From a phage, in the sequence record PZ379545.1: a stretch of DNA of 52,467 bases. One strand, written 5' to 3'. Made by a program: the position numbers and the translations under genes. Of the stretch, positions 8,970 through 40,328 are shown in pieces (position 1 is the first letter of the stretch; every line of letters begins with the position of its first letter). The notes below the pieces were generated by a model, which saw only the letters and a program-made list of their open reading frames with translations, searched no databases and was not told where the DNA came from.

Positions 8970-9199
8970 CTTCAACCGAATTTACCATTGATGGGGTTCA
9001 ATACCTGCTGGAATCTGATTGCGAATATCGCCAGTGGGCAGTAATTCACGACCGAGTTGTAAAATACTTGGAACGTGTGGGGAAGGAAACTTCTAAATCT
9101 ATGTTGTTTGAGGCAACAGTTCTTGGGACAACCTCAATCAATAAAGAACTAGTATCCTTCAAATTAACCATTCACCCTAGTGGGAATAATTTTCAATGA
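8966..9199 (+). CDS. Hypothetical protein
   Basis: 77-aa ORF with ATGA coupling. Confidence 0.5.
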   Translation: MTSTEFTIDGVQYLLESDCEYRQWAVIHDRVVKYLERVGKETSKSMLFEATVLGTTSINKELVSFKLTIHPSGNNFQ

Positions 9200-9471
9200 T
9201 TTCAATAGACCAAGTTCCAGTTGAACTAGGTAAGGCAAAAGGTAAGCTAGATAATGCCAAATCCGACTTATCTGCCTTTGATTTAAATGCTCCAGTCGAT
9301 AAAGTTAAAGTTTTCATCGACTGTATTGACGGATGGGTGCTTGTTGAGCACGCAGTCCTTCGAGCATTACTTGTTGATGAAGTTACCAAGGCTCAGGCAT
9401 CATTTGATGAACTTGATAACCTCAACACACTGTTAAACAACACGTTAAACGATGCGTTAAAGGGTAAATAA
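9196..9471 (+). CDS. Hypothetical protein
   Basis: 91-aa ORF with ATGA coupling on both sides. Confidence 0.5.
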   Translation: MISIDQVPVELGKAKGKLDNAKSDLSAFDLNAPVDKVKVFIDCIDGWVLVEHAVLRALLVDEVTKAQASFDELDNLNTLLNNTLNDALKGK

Positions 9472-9884
9472 TGAATGTTAAGCTCGGTCAACGTTCTTTA
9501 GACCGACTTAAGGGAGTAAATCCTTCATTAGTTGCAGTATTCAAACGGGCATGTGAAACCATGCCTTTTGATGTAACTGTTTTAGAAGGTTTGCGCTCTT
9601 ATGAACGTCAACAAGAACTGTTAAAACAAGGTGCAACCAAAGTTTCAGTAAGCCGACACATGTCTGGTAACGCTTTGGACATTGCACCATATCCAATTGA
9701 CTGGAATGACCTCGAACGATTCAAAGTTTTAGCTCATCACATGTTCAAAGCTGCAAAAGAGCTTGGAATTACCATTCGTTGGGGTGGGAACTGGAGCCGT
9801 ATTGATGAAAATCAGCCGTATCCACCACTTGCACCAGGTAAGAAGAAGCTGATTGATATGCCGCACTTCGAACTTCCAGCATAA
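9471..9884 (+). CDS. Peptidase M15 (VanY-like) peptidoglycan peptidase, T5-endolysin-like
   Basis: 137 aa with SxHxxGxAxD ([10 protein letters not shown]) and a downstream His (MPHFELP); size and motif pattern resemble the T5 L-alanyl-D-glutamate peptidase endolysin as recalled. Confidence 0.7.
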
Positions 9885-28127: not shown

Positions 28128-29465
28128 ATGGCTTCTACCCAAGACTCACATGTTGGTCGGCACAAATCTCGTAAAGAGAAGAAGTTGGCAGACGGATTAG
28201 AGAACTTAGTATCCGGCATGGGGGGAATTGACGATAAGTCTTCTCACAACCGCTGGACATTCTCTAACAAGAACGCAAACTATCGTGAACTCATGAACCG
28301 CTACCGTGAGGATTGGGTTAGTCAGAAGGTTTGCGAAGTAGTTCCCCAAGATATGACGCGTAAATGGCGGCTCATTGATACCGAAGAAGGGCGACAAGCT
28401 GATGCCGAATTAGGTATTTGTGAACTCTTCAAGATGGGCTATCAGTGGGCGCGACTCTATGGAACATCGTTTGTTCTTCTGGACCTAAAAGGTACAGGTG
28501 CACTCAATACTCCATTGAATCTGGATAAGCTGAAGAAGGGATGTATCAAGTCCTTGAGGATTATCGACCGTTCACGCATGTATGCTGCCGGACCTGTAAT
28601 ACTTGATGCGTTGAGTCCTAATTATGGCCTACCAGAGTTTTACACTCTGTCTGGCTATTCTGGCATGATTCACCATACTCGTTTCTTGCGTTTCGAAGGT
28701 ACTGAACTCCCGTTGTTCGAATTCCAACGAAACATGTGGTATTCTGATTCAGTGTTGATACCGCTGCTGAAAACCATTGACCAATTCTACACAACTGCTG
28801 CTGCTGCAAGTAACCTTGCACAAGAAGCCACAGTAGATGTAGTCTCAGTCGCAGGGTTGCAAAGTCTATTGACCAACCCAGAAGGCGAACAAGCGGTCCT
28901 TAAACGATTCAAGCTCATGAAGTTAGCAAAGAGCATTTATAATGTTCTCATACTTGATGACAGTGAAAAGTACGACACGAAGTCCATTGCATTGTCAGGT
29001 GTTAAAGACCTGATTTGGGAATACCTCAAGATAGTAGCTGCTGCTGTCGGCATTCCTGCTACACGTTTCCTTTCTGCATCTCCAGACGGTATGAATGCTA
29101 CGGGTGAATCCGACCTCGTAAACTATATCGACAAACTGACAGGATTGCAGAACTCAGTCTTCCGTCCTCGATTAAAAATCATCGACAAGATTGTTCAAGC
29201 ACACTACGGAATTGCACCATATAAGTATGAGTGGCGGGATATATTCCCTGAATCAAACGTAGAACGTGCGAAGCGTGCTAAAGACTTGGCTGTTGCTGTT
29301 GACCTATTAGTTGATAATGGAACCATTACAACTGAAACAGCAAACTTAATCATGTGTCACTCCAAAGTATTTGGAGAGATTGAACTTGGTAAGCCAAACC
29401 CTAATCCACCAAACGCAAATACAGGTGCTTCAGATGCGAAATCTGGTTCCAGTAAGGTTAAGTGA
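28128..29465 (+). CDS. Portal protein
   Basis: 445 aa, follows terminase, precedes head genes. Confidence 0.7.
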   Translation: MASTQDSHVGRHKSRKEKKLADGLENLVSGMGGIDDKSSHNRWTFSNKNANYRELMNRYREDWVSQKVCEVVPQDMTRKWRLIDTEEGRQADAELGICELFKMGYQWARLYGTSFVLLDLKGTGALNTPLNLDKLKKGCIKSLRIIDRSRMYAAGPVILDALSPNYGLPEFYTLSGYSGMIHHTRFLRFEGTELPLFEFQRNMWYSDSVLIPLLKTIDQFYTTAAAASNLAQEATVDVVSVAGLQSLLTNPEGEQAVLKRFKLMKLAKSIYNVLILDDSEKYDTKSIALSGVKDLIWEYLKIVAAAVGIPATRFLSASPDGMNATGESDLVNYIDKLTGLQNSVFRPRLKIIDKIVQAHYGIAPYKYEWRDIFPESNVERAKRAKDLAVAVDLLVDNGTITTETANLIMCHSKVFGEIELGKPNPNPPNANTGASDAKSGSSKVK

Positions 29466-29490
29466 TGAAGAGTCTGTTGAGTCAGTAGTA

Positions 29491-30495
29491 ATGTTTGCTG
29501 ACCGCCAGACGATTCAATCAGCACGAGTGTTGCGCGATTCCGGAGAAATGATTGCTCCAGTAACAATCGCTCGCACTGGTTTAATGCAGTATTATGCCAA
29601 AGAGTTAGGTCCGCAATTTGCTGACTTACCTGCCAACCAAATTGTTATGGTTGATACTCCGGCATCTGTTCTGTTTGATGAAGCGACTATTGAGTTGTGT
29701 CGTTCGATGGCTGTTACTATTGGTCATCCTAAACAGGACGTAGATTTAACGAATAACAAAGAACTCCAGAAAGGCTTTGTTGAGGGTGTGCCTATGGCAG
29801 ATGGCTCTCACTTAAGCGGCTACATTGTACTGAACGACAAAGATGCTATTGCATTAGTTGATTCTGGCGTAGACCAAACTTCCTGGGGCCATGACGCAGT
29901 TCTGGAACGCGTCGAGAAAGATGGTGTTGTCTCTGCTGTTAAGACCAAGATTACTTCTGTTAATCACTTGGCGATTGTTCGCCGTGGTCGTGCACAGACT
30001 ACTCGTATCGGTGATTCCGGTGAAGAAATCGAAATCGTTGACAAGGCTAAGTTTGATGTAGTTGAAGCCGAGCGTGACAATGCTCTGGACAAGATTGCCA
30101 AGCTGGAAGCTAAACTGGCTGATGCCTCTGCTTCTAAATTGTCTGACGCCGATGTTCAAGCAATGGTTGATGAACGTGTTGTATCTCGTACAGCGTTGCT
30201 TATGGAAGTGGCCAAGCTGGGTGATGAATATGCCAAGATGGAATTCGCTGCCAAGACTGATGCCCAAATTCGTCGTGAAGTTGTTCAGAAGATTTACGAC
30301 AAGCAGTATGAAGACCGCAGTGATGATTACATCCTTGCTCGCTTTGAAGCTGCATTGGAAGATGCTGATACCGTAACTTTGGGTGACGCTCTTTCACAAT
30401 CTCTGGTTGATGCTGGTAAGAAAGAAAATACCAAGCGTGAACCTTCTCCTGACGAAGCTGCATACGCTCGTCGAATGGCTCGTTACAATAAATAA
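29491..30495 (+). CDS. Head scaffolding protein, possibly protease-scaffold fusion
   Basis: C-terminal half is charged and coiled-coil-like (AKLEAKLADASASKL...); lies between portal and capsid genes. First in-frame ATG after the portal stop is 29491. Confidence 0.55.
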   Translation: MFADRQTIQSARVLRDSGEMIAPVTIARTGLMQYYAKELGPQFADLPANQIVMVDTPASVLFDEATIELCRSMAVTIGHPKQDVDLTNNKELQKGFVEGVPMADGSHLSGYIVLNDKDAIALVDSGVDQTSWGHDAVLERVEKDGVVSAVKTKITSVNHLAIVRRGRAQTTRIGDSGEEIEIVDKAKFDVVEAERDNALDKIAKLEAKLADASASKLSDADVQAMVDERVVSRTALLMEVAKLGDEYAKMEFAAKTDAQIRREVVQKIYDKQYEDRSDDYILARFEAALEDADTVTLGDALSQSLVDAGKKENTKREPSPDEAAYARRMARYNK

Positions 30496-30504
30496 GGGTT
30501 TCAA

Positions 30505-30978
30505 ATGCCGGTACAAGAATGGCGTATTAATACTCGTGAAGCGTATGCTGGTGAACAGTATGGCCTTGCGACCACTAACTCTCAGCGTCTGACCTACAAT
30601 GCAGAAGAAGACATGCTGAACTTTGGCCTTGCAGTTGTTCAAGGCACTGCCGCAAATCAGGTTAAGCCTGGTATTGAGGCTGACGGCACTGTTCTGGGCA
30701 TTACTATGCGTCAGATTAACATCGAATCTGCTACCCGTCCTGGCAATGGCACTGTCAACATCAAAGCTGGCTGGCCTCTGGGTGTAATGATTTCTGGCCC
30801 AATCATGGTCAAACTGGTAACTGCAATCACTGACAAGAACATTGGCGTATCTGCCACTGGTCAATTTGGTGGCGTTGGTGCTGGCTATACTAAGGCAACC
30901 AACCTGACTGCACTTCGTTATCCGGCTGCTGCTGGTGATGTTGTTCCGGTCATGATTAACGTCCTCCCAAAGGCGTAA
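30505..30978 (+). CDS. Head decoration / minor capsid protein, zero-frame product
   Basis: 157-aa ORF with AAGGG RBS; ends in slippery heptamer C CCA AAG just before the stop. Confidence 0.65.
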   Translation: MPVQEWRINTREAYAGEQYGLATTNSQRLTYNAEEDMLNFGLAVVQGTAANQVKPGIEADGTVLGITMRQINIESATRPGNGTVNIKAGWPLGVMISGPIMVKLVTAITDKNIGVSATGQFGGVGAGYTKATNLTALRYPAAAGDVVPVMINVLPKA

Positions 30979-31271
30979 CGCCACCGCCAGCACCTACAGT
31001 ATCTGCTGTAGCTGCGGCTGTAACTGCGGATGCATCTTCTTCTGATGCTACTGTGACTGTGGATAAGTTATTTACATTCGGCAACTCTACAGCAACGGAC
31101 TATAATTTCGCTGTTACACCTGCTGTGACTGGTGTTTCTGTGGCGGCAAACGGCACTGTGACCGTCCTAAATGAGACAACCACTGCCACTTCTGCAACAA
31201 TTAAGGCAACAAACAAAACAGTACCTAGCGTAACTGCAACTAAAGAAATAGTTATTACGCCGAAGCCTTAA
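30505..31271 (+). CDS. Predicted -1 frameshift product: head protein with C-terminal Ig-like (Big_2-type) domain
   Basis: A -1 slip at CCCAAAG (30966-30972) joins the gene to the open -1 frame running to 31271, adding about 99 aa rich in T/V/A/S. Confidence 0.5.
30966..30972 (+). other. Putative -1 programmed ribosomal frameshift slippery site C_CCA_AAG
   Basis: X_XXY_YYZ heptamer in the zero frame, three codons before the stop; -1 frame open from 30960. Confidence 0.5.
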
Positions 31272-31278
31272 TTGTACT

Positions 31279-31299
31279 GGCGCAATTAATAGTTGCGCC
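31279..31299 (+). terminator. Hairpin GGCGCAA-N7-TTGCGCC after the frameshift extension
   Basis: Perfect 7-bp stem; no strong U tract. Confidence 0.35.
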
Positions 31300-31325: not shown

Positions 31326-32330
31326 ATGAAGATTATCAAACTGGCAGACGGTTCTGAATTCGAACTGCGTGACGCTATTGCAACCCTGCAAGACTCTGCC
31401 GCTGTTGTCTTAAGTGACGACGATGCAGTGTTCTTCCAACGTCAGCTTGAGTTCATTGAGGCTCAAACTTACGACACCCTGTATCCTGAACTGGAAGCTC
31501 GTGAAGCGTTCGGTACAGACACCACTGGTGGTGCTGGTATCAACACTCTGACCTACCGTTCATACAACCATGTTGGTAAAGCCCAGGTTATTAACGCCCG
31601 TGCTACCGACCTGCCGAAGTCCAGCATTTCTGGTATTGAAGTATCCATCGCTGTTAAGTCTGTCGGTACTGCATTCGACTACGACATTGATGAAGTTGCT
31701 TCTGCTGCTGTTACTGGCCTGCCGCTGGAAACTCGTAAAGCGAATGCTGCTACTCGTGGTTACGAGCAGTATGTTAACTCCGCTGCATGGTACGGCGATG
31801 CTGCAAACGGCTTCGTTGGCTTCTTCGAGAACCCGGATGTAACCAAAGCTACTGTAGCTGCTGGTACTGGCGGTTCTACCAAGTGGGCAGAGAAGACTCC
31901 GACCGAAGTTATTGCCGACCTGACCACTGCTGTGTCTGCAATGTATGCTTCTACTCTGAAGATTATGCGTCCTGACGAAATCTGGATGCCTGTTGAGCAT
32001 GAGCAGTACATCTTTAACACTGCACGTTCTGAACAGTCTGATAAGACTATCGGTGCATTCTTCATCGCCAACAACCAGTTCATCAACTCCCGCGATAAGA
32101 TTAAAGGTCTGAACGCAATCAAGGGTCATGGTGCATCTGGTGCAGATTGCTTCGTTGTTGTTGCACGTACCGCACAGGGTAACAAGACTTTCCGTCTGCG
32201 TGAACCTCTGCCGCTGACTTGGCAACCAGTACAGTTGCATGGTCTGGTGTACGAAGTACCTGGCCGTGGTCGTTTCGCTGGCTTCCAGGCAATGTATCCG
32301 GCTGCTATCAGCATCAACTCCGGCATCTAA
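31326..32330 (+). CDS. Major capsid protein
   Basis: 334 aa, strongly biased codon usage, positioned after scaffold and decoration genes, followed by a hairpin. Confidence 0.75.
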   Translation: MKIIKLADGSEFELRDAIATLQDSAAVVLSDDDAVFFQRQLEFIEAQTYDTLYPELEAREAFGTDTTGGAGINTLTYRSYNHVGKAQVINARATDLPKSSISGIEVSIAVKSVGTAFDYDIDEVASAAVTGLPLETRKANAATRGYEQYVNSAAWYGDAANGFVGFFENPDVTKATVAAGTGGSTKWAEKTPTEVIADLTTAVSAMYASTLKIMRPDEIWMPVEHEQYIFNTARSEQSDKTIGAFFIANNQFINSRDKIKGLNAIKGHGASGADCFVVVARTAQGNKTFRLREPLPLTWQPVQLHGLVYEVPGRGRFAGFQAMYPAAISINSGI

Positions 32331-36011: not shown

Positions 36012-36470
36012 ATGGCTTGTGAACTTCGTCAACGCGAGTTACAGGCCGACTCTGGTGATGTAGTCTTGGTTGGTACTCGTCAATTGGGTGCCAGCCAAGC
36101 TCTTGACCTTCAAGTCGAGCTTGTTCAGAAACTCGGAACTTCAATCTTCCCATTCGTTGAGAATAAATATAACTTTGCAGACATTATTTATCTGATGCAG
36201 CAAGGTGGGACGAGCAATGAAGTAACAGAATTAATTAAACGTGTAGTGTGTATGGCAACCATTGATGGTGTCGAAGTTACTCCACGCACTATGCAGATGA
36301 AATACAACGGCAACTTGATGCTCATGCACCATGTGTTTGCATTTGTTTTGGAATCGAACTTCCTTGATTTTTTCAAGCAAGGGCTCGAACTCAACGAACG
36401 CAGACGATTGGAGGCGGTGGAAGCATCCAAGATGGCCGAGCAGAAGAATTCGAGTCCGGAAACGATTTAA
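36012..36470 (+). CDS. Tail assembly chaperone (putative)
   Basis: 152-aa ORF between tube and tape measure genes. Confidence 0.5.
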   Translation: MACELRQRELQADSGDVVLVGTRQLGASQALDLQVELVQKLGTSIFPFVENKYNFADIIYLMQQGGTSNEVTELIKRVVCMATIDGVEVTPRTMQMKYNGNLMLMHHVFAFVLESNFLDFFKQGLELNERRRLEAVEASKMAEQKNSSPETI

Positions 36471-36638
36471 CTGCAAAGTTCCCGGAAATAAGATACTTCT
36501 TGCACCGTCCTGTAATAGAGGACAGTTCACTCTGTTCTCTTAAAGAGTTACAAGATGGGACCTACTCTATTATGGATTTGTTGACCTTCCACGCAATACT
36601 TGATTTGCGTAATGAATTAAAACCTAAAGAAGAAGACA

Positions 36639-39600
36639 ATGGCTAATAACTTAAAAGATTTAATGAGAATGTCTGAAGCCGAATTGATTGGCTTGGGTGC
36701 TCAATATGGTCTGTCATTCAATCCAGGTATGCGCAAACGAGATATGGCACAGCAACTTGAATCAAGTGCTGCCTCTGGTTGGATGGAAACAAATTCACAG
36801 CTTATGGAAGAAACCTATACAGAAGATGATGGCATCTCTTATGGCACTTCCGACATGATTTCAGACTCAGCCCATATCGCACAAATGATTTCTGGTGCTG
36901 GGCTGACTGAAACATTTCATGCTGCAATGAACGGTCCAAGTCACCATGTAGAAGCTGTACATGCCTACATGGAGAAACTAGGTGTGTCCACCGATGATGT
37001 GTGGATGCACATGCCTAAAGCAAACCCAAACAAGCCGGAAGGGCATTGGGGAACGCTTAATGCGTACATGCGTGATACGCTGGCAGGTCATCAAGATATA
37101 ATGCCGGAACTTCCTGGACATTATACAGGTGACATTATGGGCGAATACTCTACAAACCGTGGAGATATTGCCAAATCTATGGGCTACCTTGCTCATATGT
37201 ATGTTGACCGTCAACAATATGACGACCCAGACCGCTATGCACGAGATGTTTATCGTGTAGCCAAACGTTTAGAATCAGAATTACCGCAAAACTTCCGTGA
37301 AGTTGCTGCCGTATCTGCAATGAATGTAGGTAATAAGTCGGGGCCGAGAGTTTCATACATGGATTCATTGCCGCAACTTGGCTCAGAATCTATTGTTGGT
37401 GATATTCAGCATCCTCGACAACCTCTTAACGCATCTGGCCTACCATTAGGTTCTATGGGTTCTGGCATTAAGCCCGAATATTCTTTATCTGCATCCCTTT
37501 CTGGTTCTCCAGGTTGGTCTGATGCAAGTAAATCGCTGTACCAAGATGTATCTGGTGTGGTTAAGTCTGCTGCACAGGTATATGCTGGTGGTTCAGAACG
37601 AGGAATGAATGCATATCGTACTCAATCCTCTGACCGAGATTTAATTCTTGACTCCGCTTCTCGTTATACAGACCTTGCAGATGCTCGCTCTGGTTATGAC
37701 AACCTCAAGAAAGATATTGGGGATGACCCTCGTTACTCTGGTGCATCAATTCGTAGTGTTCTTGAAAATGCTCACCAGTATAATGAGGCAGAAGTAAGCA
37801 AGACATTTGACCCTGCTGAACGTTTAAGAAATACTGGACCTACTGAACTCAGTACATCCAATGAGTTTACGGCAAATCTAAATGAACCGACAAGTTGGAA
37901 TTCTGCAAGGGATAGAAGAGAGTCTATTGCTATTGCAAATCTCGATAGTGCTGGTGCTGGACAGCCTAGTTCGGTTAAATACCACAATGCACTCGAACAA
38001 GGTACGCAGGAGTGGCTTGATTTTCGTAAGCAGTACGATATTACTGGCTCTACTATTGGTGATTATCTGGGCCACAACCCCGCAACCAATAATAGCCCAA
38101 TACATACAATGGGCGAGAAGATTGGCCTCACAGTAAGAAAGGATTCTCCACGAGCACGTGAGAACTTTGAGCGTGGTCATAGGCTGGAAGCATGGGCCAG
38201 GCCAAGAGTTGGTGAGAAGTACGGGGTTGAGATAACCGAAACTGGCGCAATCACTAACGATAACTATCCTGGCATGATGTACTCGCCAGATGGATTAATT
38301 GGTGATGACGCTCTGTGGGAACATAAGGCTCCAAACAACTTTAAAGATTTGGAATCAACTCCCAACTACATGGACCAGATGCAACTTGGTATGCATTTGA
38401 GTGGTCGTAGTCGTACCCTGTTTACCCAAACTGTTGGCGAAGAATCTCGTAGCCAGTGGGTCGATGCTGACCCAACGTGGTTCGAACGTAACAAGAATAA
38501 GATTGCATCCTCACAAGCACGCATGAATGCTGGTCGTGAGTTTATGGAAAGCTCTGACCTTGAAGGCAAAGACCTTATTAATGCAACTCGTGAAGTTATG
38601 TCCGGTGGTGGCATCTGGGGATACCAAACTCGTGACCACAGAGATGGTGAAGGGTACACGGCTGGTAAGCGTGGAATGGCAAAGTACAGTGCTGCTGCTG
38701 GCACTGATGATGACCCGTTCTTAAGAAACCGTACCGATGCTGGGATTGGTGCTGCTACAGCCTCTGCTGTTGGCGCTGATAGCACAACTGGCAATGACCT
38801 GATGGCTGTGTCGGTTAAGAAAGGTATCCTCGCAGCACAGGAAGAAAACAAACTTCGTGGTCAGGATGCAGATTTCGGTGGTGGCGACAGTGGGCGCTCA
38901 GGCGGCTTCTGGGACAACATTGATGCTAGTAGCTATGGTATTAGTGGTGGCGGTTCTGGTGGCGGTGGTGGACGTCGTGGGTGGCAAGCTGGTGGCAGCT
39001 TCGGTGATGACTTTGGTCGAATGGGTGGGGCATTAGCTGCTGGCGTAGCTGGTGGCAGTATTGGCTCTTTATCCAATGGCGCTATGAATGCCATGATGAT
39101 GACTCCGTGGGGTCGTGTCGCTGGTATGGCTATTGGAGCTACCCAAATTGGTAACGAAGCTCTGGAAGGTCTGAATGACTTCTATGGTAACTCGTTAGAT
39201 GCTGGTGTGAACAATCCTAACGCATACTCTTCCATGACTCAGGGCTTGGAGATGTTAGGACTCAATTCACAACAAGCCAACCGGCTGAATCAAACCACAC
39301 ATAGTGCCTACAATACCCTGCTAAATGGCGACCCCAGCGGCGCTGTGAACATTGTTCAGGGAACCCGTGGCCTTATCACAATTGGCGACATTCGTGCGGC
39401 ACAGGGCGACCCTGTGGCCTTAGCGCGGGTCATGCGTGAACGTGGTCAGGAACGGGGCTGGAGTCAGGCTCGTATAGCTGGTGCAATGCAAATGGCTGGC
39501 CTGGACGGTATGGCTCGTGCCTATGACCGTACAGAATACAGCATGGGCGAGGCTGAGGCGAACGTTCAGCGTGGGGCTGACTCAAACTATGCCGAAGGCG

Positions 39601-40328
39601 TTGCACAGCTAGGAATCGCGCAGACGGAGCGTGCTGGCGTACTGCCTGGTTACGCTGTTCCGCAAGCTGCAATCTCATACGGAAGCACCTTTATTGAGGC
39701 AGGCGGTGACGCAGCCAGAGTGATGCGTGTGGCCTCCAACGGTACAGCCGATGCAGCACGTAATGTTTACGACTTTATCGCAGGAGAAGAGTCAGGGAAC
39801 CGCGATTTGAACGCAGATGGTTCGGTGGTTACATCGCCAACTGGTGCTAAAGGTCGTATGCAGGTTCTTGATTCAACTTCCCGTGACCCTGGCTTTGGTG
39901 TTCGTCCTGCCAAAGATAACTCACTGGAAGAACGTGCTCGCGTTGGTCGTGACTACTATGATGCAATGCTCAAGCGATATAATGGTGACGCAGAGAAGGC
40001 TATGGCTGCGTATACTGATGGTGCCGGAACTGTTGATGATGCTATCAATAAGCACGGAACTGATTGGCTCAATGCTGTTCCTTTGCAGGCTCAGAATCGT
40101 GTCAAGAAATATCGTGAGTGGGCTAATCAGGGTGATGCAATTGTTGAGGGTGCTGCTGGCTTTACACGTAATGGATTGTCTTATGGACAAACACAACCAA
40201 CCGTGGTTAACGTGGAAGTTAAGGCAACCGTAAACAACAAGCAAGCCTCTGCAACCGTATCAACTCCAAATGGACAAACTGTTACCCAAACAATCAACAT
40301 GGGCAATGGTGCAATGGAACGCAGGTAA
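36639..40328 (+). CDS. Tail tape measure protein with Gly-rich segment and C-terminal lytic transglycosylase (SLT-like) domain
   Basis: 1229 aa; Gly-rich stretch (GGGSGGGGGRRGW...); SLT-like IAGEESGNRDL...GAKGRMQVLDSTSRDPGFG near the C-terminus. Confidence 0.7.
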   Translation: MANNLKDLMRMSEAELIGLGAQYGLSFNPGMRKRDMAQQLESSAASGWMETNSQLMEETYTEDDGISYGTSDMISDSAHIAQMISGAGLTETFHAAMNGPSHHVEAVHAYMEKLGVSTDDVWMHMPKANPNKPEGHWGTLNAYMRDTLAGHQDIMPELPGHYTGDIMGEYSTNRGDIAKSMGYLAHMYVDRQQYDDPDRYARDVYRVAKRLESELPQNFREVAAVSAMNVGNKSGPRVSYMDSLPQLGSESIVGDIQHPRQPLNASGLPLGSMGSGIKPEYSLSASLSGSPGWSDASKSLYQDVSGVVKSAAQVYAGGSERGMNAYRTQSSDRDLILDSASRYTDLADARSGYDNLKKDIGDDPRYSGASIRSVLENAHQYNEAEVSKTFDPAERLRNTGPTELSTSNEFTANLNEPTSWNSARDRRESIAIANLDSAGAGQPSSVKYHNALEQGTQEWLDFRKQYDITGSTIGDYLGHNPATNNSPIHTMGEKIGLTVRKDSPRARENFERGHRLEAWARPRVGEKYGVEITETGAITNDNYPGMMYSPDGLIGDDALWEHKAPNNFKDLESTPNYMDQMQLGMHLSGRSRTLFTQTVGEESRSQWVDADPTWFERNKNKIASSQARMNAGREFMESSDLEGKDLINATREVMSGGGIWGYQTRDHRDGEGYTAGKRGMAKYSAAAGTDDDPFLRNRTDAGIGAATASAVGADSTTGNDLMAVSVKKGILAAQEENKLRGQDADFGGGDSGRSGGFWDNIDASSYGISGGGSGGGGGRRGWQAGGSFGDDFGRMGGALAAGVAGGSIGSLSNGAMNAMMMTPWGRVAGMAIGATQIGNEALEGLNDFYGNSLDAGVNNPNAYSSMTQGLEMLGLNSQQANRLNQTTHSAYNTLLNGDPSGAVNIVQGTRGLITIGDIRAAQGDPVALARVMRERGQERGWSQARIAGAMQMAGLDGMARAYDRTEYSMGEAEANVQRGADSNYAEGVAQLGIAQTERAGVLPGYAVPQAAISYGSTFIEAGGDAARVMRVASNGTADAARNVYDFIAGEESGNRDLNADGSVVTSPTGAKGRMQVLDSTSRDPGFGVRPAKDNSLEERARVGRDYYDAMLKRYNGDAEKAMAAYTDGAGTVDDAINKHGTDWLNAVPLQAQNRVKKYREWANQGDAIVEGAAGFTRNGLSYGQTQPTVVNVEVKATVNNKQASATVSTPNGQTVTQTINMGNGAMERR

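Follow-up and report, generated by a model that had tools for sequence, protein, structure and literature searches.

We find that the capsid cement gene of a phiEcoM-GJ1-like myophage (Chaseviridae, Cleopatravirinae) is very likely decoded in two ways, with −1 frameshifting at a slippery C_CCA_AAG heptamer giving rise to a 255-aa protein in addition to the 157-aa cement protein. The genome was analyzed as one stretch of 52,467 nucleotides (sequence record PZ379545.1), which we refer to as the window. A sequence-only reading had proposed a programmed −1 frameshift at this position, and sequence comparison and structure prediction support that proposal through the anatomy of the site, its conservation at the nucleotide level, its co-occurrence with a downstream open reading frame (ORF), the constraint on that ORF as measured by dN/dS, the lack of an independent start and the predicted folds of both parts of the fusion.

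A slippery heptamer closes a capsid cement gene

The gene in question is flanked by a prohead protease/scaffold gene and the major capsid gene (Table 1). Its 157-aa product matches the Phage_cement family (Pfam accession PF22758) over residues 7–152 (E = 2.5e-16; 60.6 bits, against a cut-off of 27) and PHROG 563, a virion structural protein (1.3e-25). A sequence profile of the cement family returned no matches among PDB sequences, and the relation to proteins of known structure is seen by fold search. The AF2 model of the protein (pLDDT 83) matches, in Foldseek, chain G of the Pam3 capsid (8hdt_G, 4.4e-6) and the T1 capsid (9kzj_I, 1.7e-5), followed by the decoration proteins of XM1 (7kmx), TW1 (5wk1) and E217 (8frs); HFTV1, FCWL1 and the head-fibre base of phi29 gp8.5 also match. 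A homologue in phage 4HA13, 67% identical to the window's protein, has been found in virions, where it ranked among the top proteins and its peptides covered 100% of the sequence (PMC9699118, Table S2). The sequence-only reading had called the product a head protein. Family and fold make it, more specifically, a capsid cement/decoration protein, with a predicted location on the capsid.

The 3′ end of the cement ORF reads …GTC CTC CCA AAG GCG TAA, with AAG at 30970–30972, so that the heptamer lies in phase and one codon before the stop, at the position given in the sequence-only reading. Its X_XXY_YYZ phase is the one that lets both tRNAs re-pair in the −1 frame. The nearest upstream stop in the −1 frame lies at 30957–30959, no other stop interrupts that frame between 30960 and the TAA at 31269–31271, and its translation yields the 99 additional codons that had been anticipated. 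Over its full 52.5 kb, the window has a single CCCAAAG on the + strand. Just two in-phase X_XXA_AAG heptamers are present in the ~15,300 codons of + strand ORFs, and the one at the end of the cement gene alone sits within 5 codons of a stop. In two publications, C_CCA_AAG is reported to rank first in efficiency among −1 heptamers in E. coli (PMC4066793; PMC5009743). In reporters it reached 54% frameshifting with a pseudoknot and only ~0.3% without a stimulator, and the best tetramer in E. coli was A_AA.G (PMC4066793).

Table 1. Features of the cement locus, with positions in the window.
Feature	Position	Strand	Basis or remarks
Capsid cement/decoration gene	30505..30978	+	Pfam, PHROG, AF2/Foldseek; product 157 aa, 16.45 kDa
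−1-frame TAA closing the frame just upstream	30957..30959	+	…GAT TAA CGT CCT CCC AAA GGC…
Slippery heptamer C_CCA_AAG, in phase (P-site CCA, A-site AAG)	30966..30972	+	Sequence read
−1 extension, 99 codons + stop (putative)	30972..31271	+	Linker GVTPPPAP (Pro/Ala-rich), then predicted Ig-like beta-sandwich
0-frame stop TAA, one codon past the heptamer	30976..30978	+	Sequence read
Candidate stimulatory hairpin, interrupted stem	30983..31021	+	Core CUACAGU/GCUGUAG at 30994–31011

The slip site and the downstream ORF are conserved and lost together

We compared 26 distinct Cleopatravirinae-type sequences, from phages and metagenomes, in which the downstream ORF is present; the phages among them have hosts in Escherichia, Yersinia, Pectobacterium, Erwinia, Pantoea, Proteus and Aeromonas. 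All 26 carry an in-phase slippery site with the 0-frame stop 0 or 1 codon later, and all 26 carry an in-phase A_AAR slip codon. The site is C_CCA_AAG in 24 sequences, C_CCA_AAA in one (L047) and G_GCA_AAG in one (Myduc). In Loessnervirus the 0-frame stop directly abuts the heptamer, and in Myduc the site is followed at once by TAA, with a 111-aa −1 ORF still in place. Across the 26 sequences the wobble bases of the slip site stay fixed amid variable codons and amino acids on either side. The codon before CCA thus encodes seven different amino acids and yet ends in C in 25 of the 26 sequences, the proline codon is always CCA, and lysine is encoded by AAG in 25.

No such slippery site was present in any of 11 relatives that lack the ORF (the Nefertitivirinae L024–L027, together with L028, L031, L032, L048 and L055–L057). 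This group includes L028, which encodes the cement homologue nearest to the window's own among those obtained from the protein collection (94% at the amino acid level). L028 has lost the slippery site along with the ORF, and translation in its 0 frame now gives …SKGAATPGE, which corresponds to the former −1-frame linker. Among the relatives compared, the heptamer singled out in the sequence-only reading is therefore kept wherever the ORF is kept and gone wherever the ORF is gone. This comparative evidence strongly supports programmed −1 frameshifting.

The cement proteins themselves are uniform in length. Homologues retrieved from databases are all ~157 aa, save a few with short in-frame Ala/Pro/Gly tails, and PK or PKx is the C-terminal sequence in most of a set of 85. 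When the 255-aa sequence was searched against 5.8 billion proteins, 87 homologues were identified, none of which is a natural in-frame fusion of cement and Ig-like domains.

The −1 frame is under coding constraint and lacks a conserved start

A −1 slip at the heptamer would join residues 1–156 of the cement protein to 99 new residues, for a product of 255 aa and 26.1 kDa. A trypsin site lies exactly at the fusion junction, between …INVLPK and GVTPPP…, and the tryptic peptide GVTPPPAPTVSAVAAAVTADASSSDATVTVDK, which is coded upstream of every possible start, is diagnostic of the fusion. The virion proteome of 4HA13 lists only the 157-aa form, from a search database that lacked the fusion (PMC9699118).

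Across relatives the dN/dS of the extension is 0.07–0.2, indicative of purifying selection, and synonymous divergence is saturated. The 27 codons upstream of the first GTG give a dN/dS of 0.11–0.33 in the same frame. No ATG occurs in the ORF in the window or in relatives, except for one late in Myduc, and the position of the first candidate start (GTG or TTG) varies among relatives between codons 8 and 79 (for example, codon 51 in flopper, 57 in phiA050 and 79 in Fifi44). No Shine-Dalgarno sequence precedes 31053 or 31059 in the window (duplex energies of +0.6 and −1.0 kcal/mol, respectively). Among the relatives, GTG 31053 itself is unconserved, and neither a conserved start nor a conserved Shine-Dalgarno sequence was found for the ORF. 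A search with the extension alone retrieved only close relatives, in which it has been called as ORFs of 70–91 aa with arbitrary starts.

The extension is a predicted Ig-like domain that varies in sequence type

The AF2 model of the extension (pLDDT 92) contains nine strands that span about 30996 to 31259, and the predicted strands at extension residues 11–14 and 20–22 lie upstream of GTG 31053. The best PDB matches in Foldseek are the Ig-like domain of T5 pb6 and the phi29 gp8 capsid protein, with invasin also matched. In BFVD, the matches are capsid proteins and phage proteins described as 'Bacterial Ig-like domain' or BIG2 domain proteins (TM up to 0.76, 32% identity), and the extension further matches PHROG 13745, 'Ig domain containing protein' (1.3e-7). 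Searches of Pfam with extensions gave only sub-threshold matches, to Rpf1_C, GldM_3rd and Ig_3, and no Pfam family reaches threshold on the extension in the window. Big_2 (PF02368) is absent at E ≤ 1 from this extension and from those of five relatives. The predicted structure thus supports an Ig-like fold, and of the original description as an Ig-like (Big_2) domain the first half stands, whereas the Pfam family does not.

Different relatives fill this slot with Ig-like domains of at least four sequence types, and duplication, swapping and loss are all seen. In flopper and SA91KD the domain has been duplicated, and in Orgeat, Myduc and L045 other Ig-like domains have taken its place; the −1 frame is kept in every one of these cases. 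Orgeat and Y2 carry different Ig-like cassettes within one species. We give an even chance to a broader reading of this pattern, in which the slip site would be a fixed 'socket' across Cleopatravirinae, with unrelated Ig-like cassettes swapped, duplicated or deleted behind it, always in the −1 frame, and recoding would control a sub-stoichiometric surface display on the cement protein.

A candidate stimulatory hairpin is restricted to some lineages

The candidate hairpin downstream of the heptamer has a minimum free energy of −19.8 kcal/mol (z = −2.3). It begins 10 nt past the heptamer and its core 21 nt past, compared with a usual spacer of 5–9 nt. Two of its pairs covary through synonymous changes (A-U/C-G and A-U/U-A). 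The covariation score of 0.132 is reached in 1 of 500 shuffles and compares with values of at most 0.057 in slid controls, and synonymous divergence is lower across the hairpin stretch than in the remaining extension. The RNAalifold consensus consists of a 5-bp core only, and predictions for PP101, PM1, Orgeat and Myduc, all of which keep the slip site, show nothing comparable. We found no Shine-Dalgarno-like element upstream of the heptamer and no match to an Rfam frameshift element, even at permissive thresholds. The hairpin is annotated in SA91KD as a rho-independent terminator; in a terminator scan it is not terminator-like and has no T tail. Stimulation probably comes from the very shift-prone heptamer and the adjacent 0-frame stop, joined by the hairpin in Carltongylesvirus-like genera, and the proposed socket system may run on the heptamer and adjacent stop alone, without a universal RNA structure.

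Alternative explanations

We considered it highly improbable that the downstream ORF is a separate small gene, expressed from GTG 31053 or another GTG as a free Ig-like protein of ~72 aa. A 72-aa GTG ORF does exist at 31053–31271, and several GenBank records and metagenome gene callers annotate stand-alone ORFs here, but the annotated start differs in almost every record and the candidate starts are unconserved. Independent translation from GTG 31053, which the sequence-only reading had weighed against its own proposal, is implausible: Shine-Dalgarno sequences are missing ahead of both 31053 and 31059, and the codons upstream of the unconserved GTG are under purifying selection and form predicted strands of the domain. 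A separate gene would also leave unexplained the frozen wobble positions of the heptamer and the joint loss of heptamer and ORF. Three other routes to the extension were rejected. Termination-reinitiation would have to manage with start codons absent within 75 nt of the stop, stop-codon readthrough does not reach an extension that lies outside the 0 frame, and for transcriptional slippage the A run is just three bases long.

Recoding could also take a different form at the same place, either as a single-tRNA slip on A_AAG aided by the stop or as the slip of a hungry or terminating ribosome. Myduc, which keeps just G_GCA_AAG and an immediate TAA ahead of its −1 ORF, agrees with such a form, as do the abutting stop of Loessnervirus and the rank of A_AA.G among E. 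coli tetramers (PMC4066793). We nevertheless regard it as very unlikely, given that 25 of the 26 sequences have the same C at position 1 and the same CCA despite the varied preceding amino acid, which speaks for selection on the P-site half of the heptamer as well. It is extremely doubtful that the ORF is an untranslated remnant, or that faulty sequencing or assembly has introduced a frame break into what is truly an in-frame fusion gene. The region has been lost entirely in L028, L031, L032 and L048 and is therefore dispensable, and a T/A/V-rich composition keeps frames open more easily; but 26 genomes and contigs, each sequenced independently, share this frame arrangement, dN/dS stays well under 1 while synonymous divergence is saturated, the domain fold is confidently predicted, and duplications and swaps all stay in the −1 frame.

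Proposed decoding of the cement gene

On the favored reading of −1 frameshifting at C_CCA_AAG, the majority of ribosomes would read CTC CCA AAG GCG TAA and release the 157-aa cement protein. In a fraction of cases, tRNA-Pro and tRNA-Lys on C_CCA_AAG would slip back one base and re-pair on CCC_AAA, and the slipped ribosomes would bypass the stop and read 99 further codons in the −1 frame. The efficiency of this slippage is presumably such that the longer product is a minor isoform. In the resulting 255-aa transframe protein, the complete cement fold would be followed by a linker rich in proline and alanine and then by the Ig-like beta-sandwich. The cement fold is common to the short and the long form, so each should take a place in the capsid lattice and thereby enter the virion. 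The head would then carry a sub-stoichiometric number of Ig-like domains projecting from its surface, where they would probably serve as weak adhesins for carbohydrate-rich surfaces.

Database annotation and significance

Frameshifting of the −1 type is already a well-known viral trick, and its use in this cement gene is very probable. None of the database records inspected for Cleopatravirinae annotates a frameshift, and in 16 of 16 annotated GenBank/RefSeq records inspected the region is blank or holds an arbitrary small ORF. Records disagree on the start of the downstream ORF or leave a 350-nt gap empty, and stand-alone ORFs are annotated in ST32, Mangalitsa, PYps16N, PYps23T, Faunus, 4HA13, Y2, Myduc and SA91KD. 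The papers on ST32, PP101 and 4HA13 do not mention a frameshift, and the searchable literature yielded no experimental evidence for a transframe protein in Chaseviridae phages. In the portions of the literature covered by our searches, we found no report of capsid cement proteins as a class of frameshift carrier.

If the two-way decoding is real, the annotation of a whole phage subfamily would be corrected and a new 26-kDa cement-Ig protein of the virion surface would be recognized. The phages concerned are under development against E. coli, Erwinia, Pectobacterium and Yersinia, and the cement-Ig protein could affect adsorption, adherence to mucus and other surfaces, and immunogenicity. The locus would also provide a well-sampled natural case for asking how little signal a bacterial −1 frameshift needs and how Ig-like modules exchange behind a conserved recoding site. 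It could further offer phage engineering a ready-made low-copy display site, comparable to gene 10B of T7 and K1F.

Comparison with known systems

The slip site of Lactobacillus phage A2 is C_CCA_AAA with a downstream stem-loop, identical to the L047 variant and a member of the same heptamer family as the site described here. In A2 (gp5A/gp5B) and phage T3 (10A/10B), a −1 slip near the end of a head gene gives two products which, as here, share the assembly domain while the longer one carries an Ig-like domain, as described in a review (PMC5009743). The same review, with reference to Fraser et al., presents frameshift-made C-terminal Ig-like domains as an established phage theme, and the domains reviewed there are C-terminal on a virion protein, reached by frameshifting and promiscuously exchanged, much as we observe or propose for the cement locus (PMC5009743). 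In contrast to those reviewed domains, the window's domain matches no Pfam Ig family, and Phage_cement is absent as a carrier class from the passages of the review that match the terms searched (PMC5009743). The carriers in A2 and T3 are major capsid proteins of the HK97 fold, whereas the carrier here is a separate cement/decoration protein. In a further difference from A2 and T3, the candidate RNA stimulator here is weak and not universal.

E217 gp24 and Pam3 gp6 (PF22758) belong to the same HMM family as the window's cement protein and share its fold and its gene position between protease/scaffold and major capsid. We know of no cement/decoration protein of E217, Pam3, T1, XM1, TW1 or HFTV1 that has been described with a frameshift-encoded extension. 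In phi29 gp8.5, the same base fold is combined with a C-terminal projection, and the rest of the protein beyond the base forms the head fibre, an arrangement that fits an outward-facing C-terminus of the cement protein. phi29 gp8.5 is a single in-frame protein.

The slippery chemistry of the site, V_VVA_AAG, is that of dnaX (A_AAA_AAG) and of IS3/IS911, and the copA slip site is C_CCA_AAG itself. These sites have defined stimulators, in the form of an upstream Shine-Dalgarno-like element or a stem-loop or pseudoknot at 5–9 nt, whereas at the cement locus the Shine-Dalgarno-like element is missing and the hairpin is modest and lineage-restricted. E. coli has a single tRNA-Lys, which binds AAG only weakly and meets its cognate codon on re-pairing with AAA (PMC5009743; PMC4066793).

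The window contains a second −1 candidate, an in-phase T_TTT_TTC at 36368 with a 92-codon −1 ORF behind it that ends at the tape-measure gene, and these features suggest that the tail chaperone gene of this genome is subject to −1 frameshifting as well. The G/GT-type frameshift of tail assembly chaperones is likewise a conserved −1 shift in a phage structural module. It serves a different gene and role, that of an assembly chaperone, whereas the cement extension would be a domain of the virion surface.

The putatively extended gene encodes a capsid cement protein

The window belongs to a phiEcoM-GJ1-like myophage (Chaseviridae, Cleopatravirinae), with a best nucleotide match of ~90% over the head region. 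PP952070.1, recorded as Staphylococcus phage Pel53 with S. hyicus as listed host, has DNA 87.5% identical to the window's enterobacterial Chaseviridae head region; its host assignment looks doubtful. The called start of the DUF2213 gene is a TTG at 29371 that makes it overlap the portal gene by 95 nt, and starts annotated in relatives differ by more than 200 nt.

The sequence-only reading had proposed that a -1 frameshift extends a head protein, an identity that can now be made more specific. The 157-aa product matches the Pfam family Phage_cement (E217 gp24/Pam3 gp6) at 60.6 bits (cut-off 27). Its AF2 model (pLDDT 83), compared with solved structures, resembles the Pam3 cement protein, the decoration proteins of T1, FCWL1, XM1, TW1, HFTV1 and E217, and the base of the phi29 head fibre gp8.5. 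Peptides covering 100% of a homologue in phage 4HA13, 67% identical to the window's protein, were recovered from purified virions (PMC9699118 Table S2). The family match, fold and virion detection therefore identify a capsid cement/decoration protein. By analogy with the phi29 fibre, an extension at the C-terminus of this fold would probably face outward.

Coordinates of the cement locus and neighbouring head genes in the window
Feature	Coordinates	Strand	Remarks
Portal gene	28128-29465		Phage_portal_3
DUF2213 protease/scaffold gene	29371-30495		next after portal
Cement ORF	30505-30978	+	encodes 157 aa, 16.45 kDa
-1 frame TAA	30957-30959	+	closes -1 frame upstream of heptamer
Heptamer C_CCA_AAG	30966-30972	+	X_XXY_YYZ phase
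Candidate hairpin	30983-31021		-19.8 kcal/mol, z -2.3
Major capsid protein gene	31326-32330		follows cement gene after a gap of ~350 nt

Direct reading of the window confirmed both the in-phase heptamer near the cement stop and the open -1 frame. The gene ends ...GTC ATG ATT AAC GTC CTC CCA AAG GCG TAA, so that a single GCG codon separates the heptamer from the stop at 30976-30978, and the -1 frame is open from 30960 to a TAA at 31269-31271. A slip would join residues 1-156 to 99 new residues (GVTPPPAPTVSAV...ITPKP), giving a predicted fusion of 255 aa and 26.1 kDa versus the shorter unshifted protein. The + strand of the 52.5-kb window has a single CCCAAAG. The + strand ORFs (~15,300 codons) contain 36 in-phase XXXYYYZ heptamers, two of them of the X_XXA_AAG type, and the cement heptamer alone of this type lies within five codons of a stop.

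Elsewhere in the window, within 9459-9471, an in-phase A_AAG_GGT stands one codon ahead of the stop of ORF 9196-9471. Behind it the -1 frame runs on into gene 9471-9884, whose own ATG overlaps that stop (TAATG), an arrangement that is probably ordinary translational coupling. A T_TTT_TTC is in phase at 36368, inside a 152-aa gene (36012-36470) directly upstream of the tape-measure gene (36639-40328, 1229 aa). A 92-codon -1 ORF opens exactly at this heptamer and ends at 36646, and the region 36012-36646 looks like a classic tail assembly chaperone G/GT-type -1 frameshift.

The slip site is retained with the extension and absent without it

The loci compared come from 22 phages in GenBank and from various metagenomic contigs; these relatives are phylogenetically non-independent. 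An ORF of 92-193 codons follows the cement gene in 26 distinct sequences. In every one of them it lies in the -1 frame and is open from the slip site, and the 0-frame stop comes 0 or 1 codon after that site. C_CCA_AAG is in phase in 24 of these 26 non-independent sequences; C_CCA_AAA is found in one (L047) and G_GCA_AAG, followed directly by TAA, in Myduc. The codon ahead of CCA encodes any of seven amino acids (L, V, G, I, A, S and Q) but ends in C in 25/26; the proline codon is always CCA and the lysine codon is AAG in 25/26. Third positions two and three codons farther upstream vary freely. This pattern indicates that slip-site conservation acts at the nucleotide level.

Eleven relatives lack the ORF (Nefertitivirinae phages and loci L028, L031, L032, L048 and L055-L057), and their major capsid gene begins ~20-90 nt after the cement gene. 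The slip site is found in none of these 11, and the joint absence of ORF and site from several separate lineages fits repeated loss. Across related phages, then, the heptamer is present with the ORF and absent without it. Most of 85 cement homologues from the protein collection end in PK or PKx; longer-tailed homologues lack PK near the C-terminus, with one internal PK and one chance PK end.

The most telling ORF-less relative is L028, whose cement protein (94% identical to the window's) is the closest retrieved from the protein collection. Its DNA matches the window's exactly as far as ATGATT, after which comes AAC GTG TTT TCC AAA GGT GCA GCT ACA CCA GGC GAG TAA. The heptamer is gone, the Ig-coding part is deleted, and the 0 frame now holds the linker of the old -1 frame (K-G-x-x-T-P), ending …SKGAATPGE before the stop. 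This stretch (1956-2082 in L028, L029 and L030) is a natural "frame-corrected then truncated" derivative.

Exchangeable Ig-like domains occupy the extension

The AF2 model of the extension, built on a shallow alignment of 15 close relatives, is a nine-strand beta-sandwich (pLDDT 92). Its top solved fold matches are the Ig-like domain of the T5 tail tube protein pb6, the phi29 capsid protein gp8 and invasin. Among predicted viral structures, "Bacterial Ig-like domain" proteins of NJ01 and SGF2 rank highest (32% identity, TM ~0.75), with further matches to large capsid proteins of phages Paul and 7-11 and to BIG2-labelled proteins. PHROG 13745, "Ig domain containing protein", matches at 1.3e-7. 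A Pfam search of the extension returned no family at threshold and no match of any kind to Big_2. The modelled fold and the PHROG match support the Ig-like part of the original proposal, but not membership of Big_2.

The domain that follows the slip site varies between phages, the window's type being the commonest. In flopper (L008) and SA91KD (L013) this window-type domain occurs twice in tandem, the copies connected by a PKPPAPTVSAV linker (~1972-2549 of the locus; 193 codons, again in the -1 frame after an identical heptamer). Fifi44 and L046 have a distant version of the window-type domain, and PP101, PM1 and L047 a divergent form. Orgeat, L040 and L041 encode an I-set or Hoc-like Ig domain (PHROG 158 at 4.8e-26, Ig_3 at 2.3e-5), L045 a further variant, and Myduc another Ig-like sequence again. 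Orgeat (L021) and Y2 (L022), both of the species Loessnervirus Y2, bear unrelated Ig-like cassettes (~1985-2314): identity is 0.8-1.0 on both flanks and drops to 0.33-0.45 exactly across the extension. This variety and the Orgeat/Y2 swap argue that the recoding site is older and more stable than the domain behind it. The domain appears accessory because it has been repeatedly lost (L028, L031, L032, L048).

Frameshifting is favored over an independent start

The -1 ORF might instead be translated on its own from a GTG or TTG start, such as the GTG at 31053 named in the sequence-only reading. The window's -1 ORF contains no ATG, and its first GTG/TTG is codon 27, a position that in relatives ranges from codon 8 to codon 79 (flopper 51, 4HA13 55, phiA050 57, Fifi44 79). 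Shine-Dalgarno complementarity is essentially nil (+0.6 kcal/mol for GTG 31053, -1.0 for GTG 31059), against -1.8 to -6.9 kcal/mol for real genes of the window. Existing annotations disagree: the region is unannotated in phiEcoM-GJ1, SKA49, PP101, PM1, phiA050, Fifi44, Mauresque and Orgeat, whereas ORFs with differing starts are annotated in ST32, Mangalitsa, PYps16N, PYps23T, SA91KD, Faunus, 4HA13, Y2 and Myduc. None of these GenBank records annotates a frameshift at the cement gene. Most pairs have a -1 frame dN/dS of 0.07-0.20 when the full extension is taken; over the 27 codons ahead of the first GTG it is 0.11-0.33, a low value from which we infer that the pre-GTG stretch is translated. 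In the AF2 model, moreover, two strands (residues 11-14 and 20-22) are encoded ahead of GTG 31053, and a third finishes at this GTG. The missing Shine-Dalgarno pairing, unconserved starts and pre-GTG constraint speak against an independent start and for entry by frameshifting.

Candidate stimulators of frameshifting

Adjacent stop codons stimulate slippage according to older literature, and the 0-frame stop 0-1 codon after the slip site is a candidate stimulator. Another candidate is the downstream hairpin, whose interrupted stem begins 10 nt past the heptamer (core 21 nt). Two base pairs of the hairpin differ on both sides, through synonymous substitutions (A-U to C-G, A-U to U-A), in the Carltongylesvirus-like genera and in some others. 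Covariation is 0.132 versus ≤0.057 in slid controls, a comparison that favors the real position because the structure was derived from the window sequence. Synonymous divergence in the hairpin stretch is about half that of the remaining extension, and the RNAalifold consensus keeps 5 bp. No comparable structure was predicted after the slip site in PP101, PM1, Orgeat or Myduc, no Shine-Dalgarno-like element was found upstream of the heptamer, and an Rfam search gave no family match. Of the -1 heptamers measured in E. coli, C_CCA_AAG has the highest efficiency (PMC4066793; also PMC5009743), with 54% frameshifting in combination with the IS3 pseudoknot and ~0.3% when no stimulator is present (PMC4066793). 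The long form would likely be a minor isoform.

In the SA91KD record the post-heptamer hairpin is labelled a rho-independent terminator, and a sigma-70 promoter is annotated within the ORF. A separate 9-bp hairpin at 31279-31299 (GGCGCAAUU...AGUUGCGCC; -14 kcal/mol, z -2.3, without a T tail) follows the extension stop and precedes the major capsid gene. Its possible roles are termination or pausing of a phage RNAP, RNA processing or mRNA stabilization.

Comparison with known frameshifted structural proteins

A programmed -1 frameshift at the cement gene is solidly supported in silico by comparative sequence and modelling evidence. Both forms would keep the complete cement fold and so should sit at the same positions on the capsid; in the long form, an Ig-like domain would be displayed on a flexible Pro/Ala linker. 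This display would be held sub-stoichiometric by frameshifting, the explanation accepted for T3/T7 10B, for phage A2 gp5B and, more broadly, for Ig-like domains of phage structural proteins (PMC5009743). We found no paper or database record describing a cement frameshift in Chaseviridae. The case belongs to the known class in which programmed frameshifting adds an Ig-like domain to a phage structural protein; its carrier is unusual, being a cement/decoration protein and not a major capsid or tail tube protein.
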